DNA of 64,000 bases from Oligoflexia bacterium (GTDB lineage Bacteria; Bdellovibrionota; UBA1018; CAIPTA01), in assembly GCA_023954355.1 (NCBI GenBank), contig JAMLID010000017.1, forward strand, positions 1,418-65,417, given 5' to 3'. Below are positions 59,147-60,796 of the stretch, in pieces. The notes under the pieces were generated by a model, which saw only the letters and a list, made by a program, of their open reading frames with translations, did not search any database and was not told where the DNA came from. Every line of letters begins with the position of its first letter. Position 1 is the stretch's first letter. The translations under genes and the position numbers were made by a program.

Positions 59147-59175
59147 TTGACCATCCGAGTTTGATGTCCATATTT
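59147..59175 (+). promoter_or_regulatory. Candidate promoter of the 59204/59648 two-gene cassette
   Basis: TTGACC (59147..59152), a 16-nt spacer, then CATATT (59169..59174). Just upstream is a tandem AACACTTTTTT AACACTTTTTTT (59114..59136). A strong RBS TAAGGAGG lies at 59191..59198. Confidence 0.3.
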
Positions 59176-59203
59176 CGAAAACACGAATACTAAGGAGGTA
59201 CCA

Positions 59204-59638
59204 TTGGGCACGATGGACGATTATTTCAAGTTTCGCGACCGGCTTAAATCACAAATCCTAGTCGCGATCGAGTGGGATGGACACGTCTCTTCCAATCCTG
59301 AATCTGCTTATGACGCCTACGCTAACACGGGGTTTCTCTATCCATTGGATCGAGTTGAAGCCGCGGTAAATGAAAGCGTGAAACGGGCAAACTATGACTA
59401 CCCGGATGAAGTAGACCTGTTTGACCCTATCCTGAAGCAAATTAAAGCAATAAAGGCTTCCTTAGATAAAGAAGCAAAAGTAATCGCGGTCAGAGCCGAC
59501 AGGCTGGGCCAACCCTTACAGGACATTCCAGATAATTACATTAAGGAAGTAGCGAACAGATTTGTAACGAGAGAAAAAGTGAACTGCGTTTTTATTGCAC
59601 CTGATCGCTGGCTACCTTCGATGATTGAGAAAAATTAA
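59204..59638 (+). CDS. Hypothetical 144-aa protein, upstream partner of the Shedu-like nuclease
   Basis: TTG start 5 nt after AAGGAGG (alternative ATG at 59213). Acidic and soluble, with no TM helix or signal peptide and no recognisable motif. The stop is 9 nt before the next start. Confidence 0.55.
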   Translation: MGTMDDYFKFRDRLKSQILVAIEWDGHVSSNPESAYDAYANTGFLYPLDRVEAAVNESVKRANYDYPDEVDLFDPILKQIKAIKASLDKEAKVIAVRADRLGQPLQDIPDNYIKEVANRFVTREKVNCVFIAPDRWLPSMIEKN

Positions 59639-59647
59639 AGGACTGAT

Positions 59648-60796
59648 GTGGCTAAGAAAAAGAAAAAAGCGCCTAAGGTAAAAAAGGATCATGTCGTAGT
59701 TTCGAGCAAGAGTTACGGAAAGGCCTTAAAAGGGGCTAAAATCTACTTTGAAGGCAAGCGCCCATCAAACCTGAAAGATGACGGCACAATAGGATTTGGC
59801 AAGCACATCCTCGAAACTCTCAAGAAAAAATACGAAAAATTTCGCTGGATAATAACACAAGAGACGAATTCCATTACGAATGAGCGAGGGATTGTCAGAG
59901 TAAGAACCTCGCAGCAACTGCTTAAAAGAATGACTGCGGAAAACTGGGATCGAAGCCGCGCCATTAAAAACGACATTGTGCAACGCTTCTTCTCTCTTAC
60001 GTTTCCAGCTCACTTCGACTCGACAGGCACCACTACTTACGTCCCTGGCACCATCTCAAAGCTTATCGATCCAGGAATTTTGCCGAGACTTTCTAGTCAG
60101 GATAAAGAGGCACTCAATACGTTTTTGCCGAAGTATGTATCTGCCGAAGCAGTTGGGATGGTGCAAAAGCTGCAGGCGACCGCACAGATTGATTCACTTA
60201 AGGCCTTAGCGAAAAATTTATCCACGGAAATCGAGAAAGGCCATCCTGAATCATGGTGGCAAACCTACATAAAAACGAACATTCTTTTAATTCAGCAGGG
60301 CTACATTGATGCGCTCGACAAGCTTAACGTCGCCGTTGGGGACACTAAATTCCCAGACTTTTGCTTAATCACTCACGATAACTACTTGGACGTACTCGAA
60401 ATCAAGAAGCCAGATACTGGGCTGTTACGGGAAGACTCCAGCAGAGGAAATTTCTACTGGGACACTGAAGTATCGAAAGCGATTAGCCAGACTGAAAATT
60501 ATGTTCAGCATATTCAATCAAAGGCTGATGCCGTCCGCTCTTACTTGCAGGACGAAAGGAAAATTAGCATTAAAGCCGTGCGACCAAGAGGAATAATCCT
60601 AGTGGGTGATGCAAGGCAATTTGAGACACAAAAGCAAAAAGACGATTTTCGCCTGCTCTCCCAAGGCATGAAGGGAATCACAATTCTTACGTACGATGAA
60701 CTTTTGACTAGGCTAGAAAATTACATCCATGTACTTGAAAAGTTTTCTTTGGCGAAGCCCGAAGTCCATCAGAGTGAGGCCCGTAAAACTAAGTAG
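59648..60796 (+). CDS. Shedu-like (DUF4263-type) PD-(D/E)xK nuclease, putative anti-phage effector
   Basis: GTG start with a Lys-rich N-terminus MAKKKKKAPKVKK. The C-terminal half (ESWWQTYIKTNILL...FPDFCLITHDNYLDVLEIKKPDT...EVSKAISQTENY...PRGIILVGD...GITILTYDELL) is collinear with the conserved DUF4263/SduA blocks (PDF..D-x-x-E-x-K-K-P, ..Q..Y, ..GiiiiG.., ..i.tYDeLl). Confidence 0.65.
   Translation: MAKKKKKAPKVKKDHVVVSSKSYGKALKGAKIYFEGKRPSNLKDDGTIGFGKHILETLKKKYEKFRWIITQETNSITNERGIVRVRTSQQLLKRMTAENWDRSRAIKNDIVQRFFSLTFPAHFDSTGTTTYVPGTISKLIDPGILPRLSSQDKEALNTFLPKYVSAEAVGMVQKLQATAQIDSLKALAKNLSTEIEKGHPESWWQTYIKTNILLIQQGYIDALDKLNVAVGDTKFPDFCLITHDNYLDVLEIKKPDTGLLREDSSRGNFYWDTEVSKAISQTENYVQHIQSKADAVRSYLQDERKISIKAVRPRGIILVGDARQFETQKQKDDFRLLSQGMKGITILTYDELLTRLENYIHVLEKFSLAKPEVHQSEARKTK

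Follow-up and report, generated by a model that had tools for sequence, protein, structure and literature searches.

Shedu is regarded as a one-protein immune system that is regulated by its own N-terminal domain, and structures of its type I members are available from E. coli (8ps4 and 8ps5, Loeff et al.) and B. cereus (8ti8 and 8ti9, Gu et al.). The survey of 5,499 Shedu neighbourhoods by Gu et al. reported associations with restriction-modification systems, BREX, transposons and prophages only. One two-gene exception has been characterised, KELShedu of E. coli (KELA and KELB; Sci Adv 2025), in which the gene of a 110-amino-acid (aa) protein lies 3 bp upstream of the gene of a DUF4263 nuclease; the two proteins form a complex, nuclease activity being tuned by the partner, defence requires both, and the nuclease by itself misfolds (PMC12577705). 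KELA is described as a four-stranded β-sheet, WYL-like and CapW/BrxR-like binder of double-stranded DNA; a second two-gene Shedu candidate exists, and some of the type IV proteins are not multi-gene (PMC12577705). Here we analysed a stretch of 64,000 nucleotides (nt) of contig JAMLID010000017.1 from an Oligoflexia bacterium (the window), in which the gene of a 144-aa protein directly precedes that of a 382-aa Shedu nuclease, SduA. We conclude that the nuclease belongs to the canonical type I Shedu and that a real gene, with distant relatives elsewhere, encodes the small protein. The reading that we favour, with middling confidence, is that the two are functionally tied, the small protein being an optional nuclease-associated accessory subunit beside a self-sufficient Shedu.

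Table 1. Features of the two-gene Shedu locus, followed by those of its surroundings; positions are counted from the first letter of the window.
Feature	Position	Strand	Basis or remark
144-aa small protein, open reading frame (ORF)	59204-59638	+	ORF list; homologues, model
382-aa type I Shedu nuclease SduA, ORF; Lys-rich N-terminal tail, N-terminal domain, long linker helix, C-terminal DUF4263	59648-60796	+	Pfam, PADLOC, Foldseek
SduA_C (DUF4263) PD-(D/E)xK nuclease domain, residues 199-353	60242-60706	+	Pfam envelope; alignment to E. coli and B. cereus Shedu
Putative catalytic core: D237 (60356-60358, FPDF), E251 (60398-60400), K253 (60404-60406, LEIKKP)	60356-60406	+	alignment A1, codons
Promoter-like site TTGACC, 16-nt spacer, CATATT	59147-59174	+	consensus scan, 9 of 12 positions match
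Shine-Dalgarno AAGGAGG of the small gene	59192-59198	+	sequence reading
Ribosome-binding site AAGGA of the SduA gene; overlaps the small-gene stop codon	59638-59642	+	sequence reading
Glycerophosphodiester phosphodiesterase (GDPD) gene remnant	58272-58643	+	stops after ~105 residues, Pfam profile positions 1-48 of 244
114-aa ORF just inside the island	58640-58984	+	no Pfam, NCBIfam or PHROG match; not related to the L042 recombinase fragment that lies upstream of the small gene there
AbiEii toxin (PF08843, E = 2e-24) and AbiEi antitoxin (PADLOC, E = 1e-28), overlapping pair	60849-62334	-	convergent with the Shedu gene
HTH_17 (excisionase/AlpA-like) gene and TraD/TraG-type type IV secretion system (T4SS) coupling-protein gene	62289-63999	-	stretch of 50-54% GC

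The 382-aa protein matches the Pfam family SduA_C (PF14082) with an E-value of 1.2e-29 and 103.9 bits, for a cut-off of 27, its residues 199-353 covering positions 2-159 of the 159 in the profile. It is also matched by 24 PADLOC models of SduA (best E = 1.7e-30), one of which, PDLC00390, spans residues 53-362. The motifs FPDF, LEIKKP, SQTENY, PRGIILVGD and ILTYDELL, which the original prediction had quoted from the protein, are all present, and its assignment to the Shedu-like DUF4263 nucleases is borne out by the PF14082 and PADLOC matches and by an intact D-ExK core. Indeed, D237, E251 and K253 are intact and invariant in an alignment of 30 sequences (A1), where the QTENY and RPRG motifs are likewise present, and they fall inside the stretch that is aligned by profile to the solved Shedu nuclease domains. 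Based on this alignment and on what is generally known of PD-(D/E)xK enzymes, the three residues would constitute the D...ExK catalytic motif.

A profile of SduA and its relatives matches the solved E. coli (8ps4) and B. cereus (8ti8/8ti9) proteins in the nuclease half, with E-values of 1e-17 and 4e-14 in the PDB; 8ps4 is the E. coli SduA entry and shares its sequence with the DNA-bound complex 8ps5. No sequence-level match between the N-terminal domain and the solved Shedu proteins was obtained in the same profile search of the PDB. The AlphaFold model of SduA, for which the alignment held 30 homologues, is of moderate confidence, with a predicted local distance difference test (pLDDT) of 75, and Foldseek superposes it on chain A of the E. 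coli complex (8ps5_A) with an E-value of 9.7e-15 over 361 columns, for a protein of 382 residues. A search for SduA homologues returned 620 sequences, and the best 120 of the 620 are full-length and 55-73% identical to the window protein; these 120 come from Acidobacteriota, Gemmatimonadota, candidate-phyla-radiation groups (Parcubacteria, Saccharibacteria), Bacteroidota and others. Both the Lys/Arg-rich N-terminal tail and the N-terminal half are conserved among the homologues. The N-terminal half had been called unlike anything that could be placed, a view that we abandon, since it is common to more than 600 homologues, is a conserved part of a large SduA subfamily for which models already exist and, as modelled, superposes on E. 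coli SduA. The searched collection contains no full-length SduA with more than 73% identity to that of the window, a scan of viral contigs did not find the subfamily, and tblastn against plasmids and phages gave nothing for either SduA or the small protein.

Compared with the solved type I proteins, SduA of the window has the same C-terminal DUF4263 PD-(D/E)xK domain, the same length of ~380 aa, an N-terminal regulatory domain and a long linker helix, and it lies in the same kind of location, a defence island or mobile element, as reported for the family. It differs from them in that it is just 16-20% identical to the solved proteins and has, at its N-terminus, a Lys-rich tail conserved within its own subfamily; a small gene is also tightly linked upstream, a feature not described for the solved systems. 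As Loeff et al. and Gu et al. use the term, the 382-aa protein is a canonical and complete type I Shedu, with the architecture of E. coli SduA.

The two ORFs lie as predicted, in agreement with the ORF list, on the same strand and in the same reading frame with a gap of 9 nt (59639-59647), and they are alike in GC content (0.448 and 0.442). The small gene starts with TTG at 59204, 5 nt after AAGGAGG, which reads as the consensus ribosome-binding site that had been noted, and this start is supported because the homologue P0122 begins in register with the 144-aa protein (MSSMEEF versus MGTMDDYF). The SduA gene starts with GTG, 5 nt after the AAGGA in the gap, and this start is supported because SduA homologues begin with MAKKK. 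A promoter of its own had also been proposed for the pair; a site with 9 of the 12 consensus positions does exist, but the region contains 4 such sites where 4.8 are expected from shuffled sequence, so the site is weak evidence for a promoter. A site scan found no terminator-like site between the two genes.

A word-index search with the 144-aa protein returned only itself, and the same search with the family profile returned four sequences. An exhaustive phmmer search of 1.84 billion cluster representatives recovered 13 distant relatives, with identities of 23-38% and E-values from 1e-25 to 6e-4, so the protein is not the ORFan that it had been taken for. Eleven of the 13 relatives are 133-155 aa long, the other two being a 105-aa fragment and a 186-aa call with an apparently mis-set start, and among the 13 we found neither a nuclease fusion nor a case in which the small protein is a domain of a larger one. 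The family alignment (A2) reveals a strand with EWDG close to the N-terminus and the motif CVxIAPDxWxP at the C-terminus; it offers no usable conserved stretch for scanning, and a scan of metagenome and viral contigs (A4) gave no confirmed match. The family is very rare, with ~15 sequences among roughly 15 billion proteins, and its 90% clusters hold 1-2 members each. One of these sequences, P0135, is a 98.6% identical copy of the small protein and is found on two other contigs, of up to 10.4 kb.

The AlphaFold2 model of the small protein is of high confidence (pLDDT 92.1, predicted template modelling score 0.84) and consists of six helices and two short strands. Foldseek searches of the PDB and BFVD gave a best E-value of 0.85 and template modelling scores of at most ~0.3, and a sequence search of the PDB gave coiled-coil noise only. 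The absence of a recognisable domain, as originally described, was confirmed with Pfam, PADLOC, NCBIfam and PHROG, none of which gave a match, and no Pfam family is reached even at E ≤ 1; nor was a DNA-binding domain detectable. When Pfam and PADLOC were run on all 14 family members, nothing consistent emerged and no Pfam family is common to them. The protein is acidic, as had been stated, though only mildly so, with an isoelectric point (pI) of 5.06 and a net charge of −4. Because 13 homologues have conserved motifs, the model reaches a pLDDT of 92 and the ribosome-binding site is a consensus one, we consider the 144-aa ORF to be a real gene, the fold of whose product is unplaced.

In light of KELShedu, a two-component Shedu can no longer be called previously undescribed, as the original prediction had it (PMC12577705, published in 2025), though the folds of the two partners are unrelated. 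Both loci have a small gene directly upstream of the gene of a ~360-380-aa DUF4263 nuclease, with a gap of 3 bp there and 9 nt here. The partner in the window differs from KELA, which we compared by its published description, in that it has 144 aa, is nearly all helical and is mildly acidic. Neither CapW (7tb5) nor BrxR (7t8k) is among the best 50 PDB matches of the small protein in Foldseek, none of which has an E-value below 0.85. A KELA-like β-sheet partner that binds double-stranded DNA is not what we find, the model being helical and the pI of 5.06 being unsuited to non-specific DNA binding. As modelled, the small protein is thus a different partner from KELA. Apart from KELShedu, our literature search turned up no paper on inhibitors or accessory proteins of Shedu.

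Evidence for a functional tie comes from the genomic surroundings of the small family, for which we counted 10 independent contexts. In four of them the small gene adjoins a co-directional nuclease gene, namely SduA in the window, SduA in locus L045, an Mrr-type gene and an Endonuclease_NS gene. In L045 the small gene (P0128) is followed after 124 nt by an ORF for the N-terminal 175 aa of an SduA, and both order and orientation are as in the window. This SduA was found by tblastx and the SduA profile and belongs to the same sub-clade as that of the window, with 65.6% identity between the N-terminal halves and an E-value of 1.8e-78 with the hidden Markov model (HMM) of A1; Pfam missed the 209-aa ORF because its DUF4263 half is absent from the contig. 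The two loci otherwise have unrelated upstream flanks and differ in GC content (0.55 in L045 versus 0.45 in the window), and the two small proteins are ~30-34% identical. A crude tree does not place the two SduA-linked small proteins as sisters, which fits partner switching better than one frozen accident. A common mobile-element backbone of the two loci was considered and rejected, the upstream flanks being unrelated.

In the remaining two of these four contexts, the gene order is reversed. The gene of P0122 (L034) follows an Mrr_cat (type IV restriction-like) gene after 18 nt, and that of P0125 (L040:136-1380) follows an Endonuclease_NS gene after 9 nt; the Endonuclease_NS protein bears a lipoprotein signal peptide, and by analogy the arrangement recalls pairs of a secreted nuclease and a cytoplasmic inhibitor. 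The Mrr-type gene and P0122 stand in a four-gene co-directional islet between thrC and a Na+/H+ antiporter gene (L034:2658-5423, also L035), with the order SLFN_AlbA_2 protein, 245-aa protein of unknown type, Mrr_cat nuclease and, last, P0122; it is a candidate defence operon, in which PADLOC finds no system.

Chance is, by our own estimate and not by a computed statistic, a poor explanation for these arrangements, because 4 of the 10 contexts are nuclease-adjacent, two of them with the same rare SduA sub-clade, and because the order is kept down to ~30% identity. Simple inertia fits poorly as well, since the flanks are unrelated and the small proteins are not sisters. Small-family proteins travel in defence islands and mobile elements and, on the same estimate, lie beside nuclease genes far above chance. 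Defence-gene neighbours recur in unrelated genomes and include SduA (twice), an Mrr/type IV restriction endonuclease-like gene, an AriA/GajA-like ATPase, DUF4145, the cyclic-oligonucleotide-based antiphage signalling system (CBASS) and AbiE.

By analogy with the solved Shedu proteins, the N-terminal domain of SduA would hold the PD-(D/E)xK domain in check and sense invading DNA, which the PD-(D/E)xK domain, as in published Shedu, would then nick or cut. The small gene would be co-transcribed with the Shedu gene, and probably translationally coupled to it, and its product may act on the nuclease next door by binding and modulating it. Its likeliest role would be that of an inhibitor or safety catch, a sensor or activator being less likely; we favour an inhibitor because small cytoplasmic proteins beside nucleases usually restrain them and because one of the partners in the family is a secreted, non-specific nuclease. 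A wider proposal is that the small protein founds a family of portable nuclease-modulating subunits that act as a safety catch or infection-responsive switch for Shedu, Mrr-type and ββα-Me Endonuclease_NS enzymes, and that the locus is an accessory-regulated Shedu variant distinct from KELShedu; this we put forward tentatively, as rather unlikely.

NucA/NuiA of Anabaena, barnase/barstar and the colicin DNase/Im pairs are examples of small inhibitors that are encoded beside their own nuclease, and such proteins usually restrain it; the known nuclease inhibitors are specific to one nuclease fold. The analogy with the small family lies in a small, mildly acidic cytoplasmic protein of ~135-145 aa that is encoded within a few bases of a nuclease gene, and the Endonuclease_NS partner in L040, with its signal peptide, is of the same enzyme family as NucA. 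In contrast to these pairs, the small family has no Pfam match to an inhibitor family (E ≤ 1) and no Foldseek match to a solved inhibitor, and it adjoins three nuclease families. With type II toxin-antitoxin pairs the locus has in common a small upstream gene that is tightly coupled to the gene of a potentially self-toxic enzyme in a mobile island, and AbiEi/AbiEii is found next door. Unlike in such pairs, the small protein is without a detectable DNA-binding domain, the presumed toxin family normally occurs without it, and in the Mrr and Endonuclease_NS loci the nuclease gene comes first.

To see how often the pair occurs we took 113 loci of SduA relatives, 33 from genomes and 80 from metagenomes, of which 85 have at least 500 nt upstream of SduA; in all 113 the SduA is at most 63% identical to that of the window and lies outside its closest sub-clade. 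No conserved family was found among the ORFs upstream and downstream of SduA in these loci. In eight of them (L007, L009, L010, L013, L020, L021, L030 and L031) an ORF of 100-160 aa starts between −4 and +17 nt from the SduA stop codon; these downstream ORFs are mostly from candidate-phyla-radiation genomes and form no single family, only the pair from L030 and L031 clustering together.

Several observations weigh against a functional tie. None of the 113 loci contains a relative of the small protein by family HMM or tblastn, and the small gene, which is 9 nt from the SduA gene in the window and 124 nt from that in L045, is absent as well from the two contexts seen for the closest sub-clade (P0003-P0018), those of P0004 and P0008. 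Most related Shedu thus manage without the small gene. The partnered SduA proteins have no unusual substitutions in common. The second pair has a defect of its own, as the similarity to SduA (L045:1132-1780) is lost after residue ~175, 97 nt before the end of the 1.78-kb contig, and the ORF ends in a stop codon 19 nt before the contig end; this copy of SduA may be disrupted, or carry an insertion, or the contig end may be chimeric. The small gene may also occur without this SduA, because P0135 is 98.6% identical to the small protein and yet no full-length SduA exceeds 73% identity. The family is unfaithful to Shedu and even to nucleases, since 6 of its 10 contexts have no adjacent nuclease. 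It would be unusual for a single inhibitor to act on ββα-Me and PD-(D/E)xK nucleases alike, and a role as DNA mimic is unlikely for a protein with a net charge of just −4. In view of this, the tight linkage of a conserved small gene upstream is supported, whereas its being a dedicated Shedu partner is not: the pair does recur in L045, and 4 of the 10 small-family contexts are nuclease-adjacent, but the co-occurrence survey found no small gene in the 113 related SduA loci or beside P0004 and P0008, and the family also adjoins Mrr-type, Endonuclease_NS and non-nuclease genes.

The neighbours in the six contexts without a nuclease are a cyclic nucleotide monophosphate (cNMP)-binding protein, an outer-membrane-like protein, a convergent AriA/GajA-like AAA ATPase, a CBASS operon (SMODS and S_4TM), a PD-T7-4-like DUF4145 gene and recombinase fragments. 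In the first of these (L038:741-1612) the small-family gene is followed after 2 nt by the gene of a 147-aa stand-alone cNMP-binding protein, whose match is to the part of Pycsar effector models that binds the ligand (PycTIR, E = 1e-16). Serine-recombinase genes (PF07508, 'Recombinase') are present as fragments next to the small-family gene in L042:4499-4921, L043:2-262 and L036:3-233, which represent two independent contexts, and therefore the family tends to sit at the edges of decayed mobile elements.

Much of this would be expected if the two genes were independent neighbours, the small gene being a self-standing cargo of the island or mobile element that has a function of its own and happens to be on one transcript with a single-gene Shedu, and the second co-occurrence being an inherited two-gene block. 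This is the strongest of the alternatives, and we hold it to be quite possible, though short of probable. It agrees with the description of Shedu as a single-gene system, with the short list of associations from the 5,499-gene survey (restriction-modification, BREX, transposons and prophages), with the empty score of the 113 related loci and with the lack of co-adaptive substitutions in SduA, and it accounts for the varied neighbours of the small family, among which are the recombinase fragments in L042/L043 and L036 and, elsewhere, many kinds of defence gene. It accounts poorly for the same pair being found in the same order in two loci that otherwise have nothing in common, with small proteins diverged to ~30% identity, and for two further members abutting unrelated nucleases with gaps of 9 and 18 nt; by a rough estimate, which was not computed, chance adjacency to a rare SduA clade in 2 of 10 contexts is very unlikely.

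A stronger form of partnership, in which the small protein is a sensor subunit without which SduA would be unable to sense or to fold, as KELA is for KELB, appears improbable to us. The tight 9-nt coupling, the weak GTG start of the nuclease gene and the recurrence of the pair in L045 are in line with it, as is the example of KELShedu, which needs both of its genes and whose nuclease misfolds by itself (PMC12577705). However, relatives of 55-73% identity with the same N-terminal domain are without the small gene at every locus examined, two of them in the closest sub-clade; SduA retains the full type I architecture including its own N-terminal domain, no substitutions mark the partnered SduAs, and the fold of the small protein is unlike the four-stranded β-sheet, WYL-like fold of KELA. 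Finally, that the 144-aa ORF is no functional gene, being a chance ORF or a decayed remnant in the Shedu leader, would suit the lack of matches in curated family libraries and the word-index search that found just the protein itself, but it is effectively refuted by 13 homologues of matching length with conserved motifs, a pLDDT of 92, the consensus ribosome-binding site and the 98.6% identical copy elsewhere.

The locus lies in a region whose composition changes abruptly. The GC content rises from 0.34-0.37 to 0.44-0.48 at ~58.5 kb (the step is at ~58.4-58.6 kb), inside the cut-off GDPD gene, and the break in this gene together with the GC step is likely to be the left junction of an inserted island. 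In the AbiE pair downstream of Shedu, AbiEi is matched by its profile only from about residue 60 of a 243-aa ORF onwards, and the true start of AbiEi is probably further downstream than the start of this ORF. The HTH_17 and coupling-protein genes beyond AbiE suggest that the island belongs to an integrative conjugative or mobilisable element, or adjoins one, and that this element continues past the end of the window. A mobile island at this locus is plausible because of the GC step in the GDPD gene and the T4SS coupling-protein gene, and the original placement of the pair in a defence or mobile island with AbiE next door is upheld by these features and by the AbiEii and AbiEi matches. The host part of the window (~37% GC) includes genes for an ankyrin-repeat protein (54052-54894, minus strand) and tRNA-Arg(CCT) (21091-21166, plus strand).

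The Shedu nuclease type and the two-gene concept are already known, and what is new at this locus is probably a very rare, previously unrecognised accessory gene family. Should the two genes be mere neighbours, both the Shedu and its defence island are ordinary. If, on the other hand, the nuclease is bound and tuned by the small protein, regulators acting on Shedu from outside would have evolved more than once and from unrelated folds, and a new small-protein family with an unplaced fold would control nucleases of different architectures. This would be useful for understanding how cells avoid self-damage by their immune nucleases, and the small protein could possibly serve as a tool for nuclease control.

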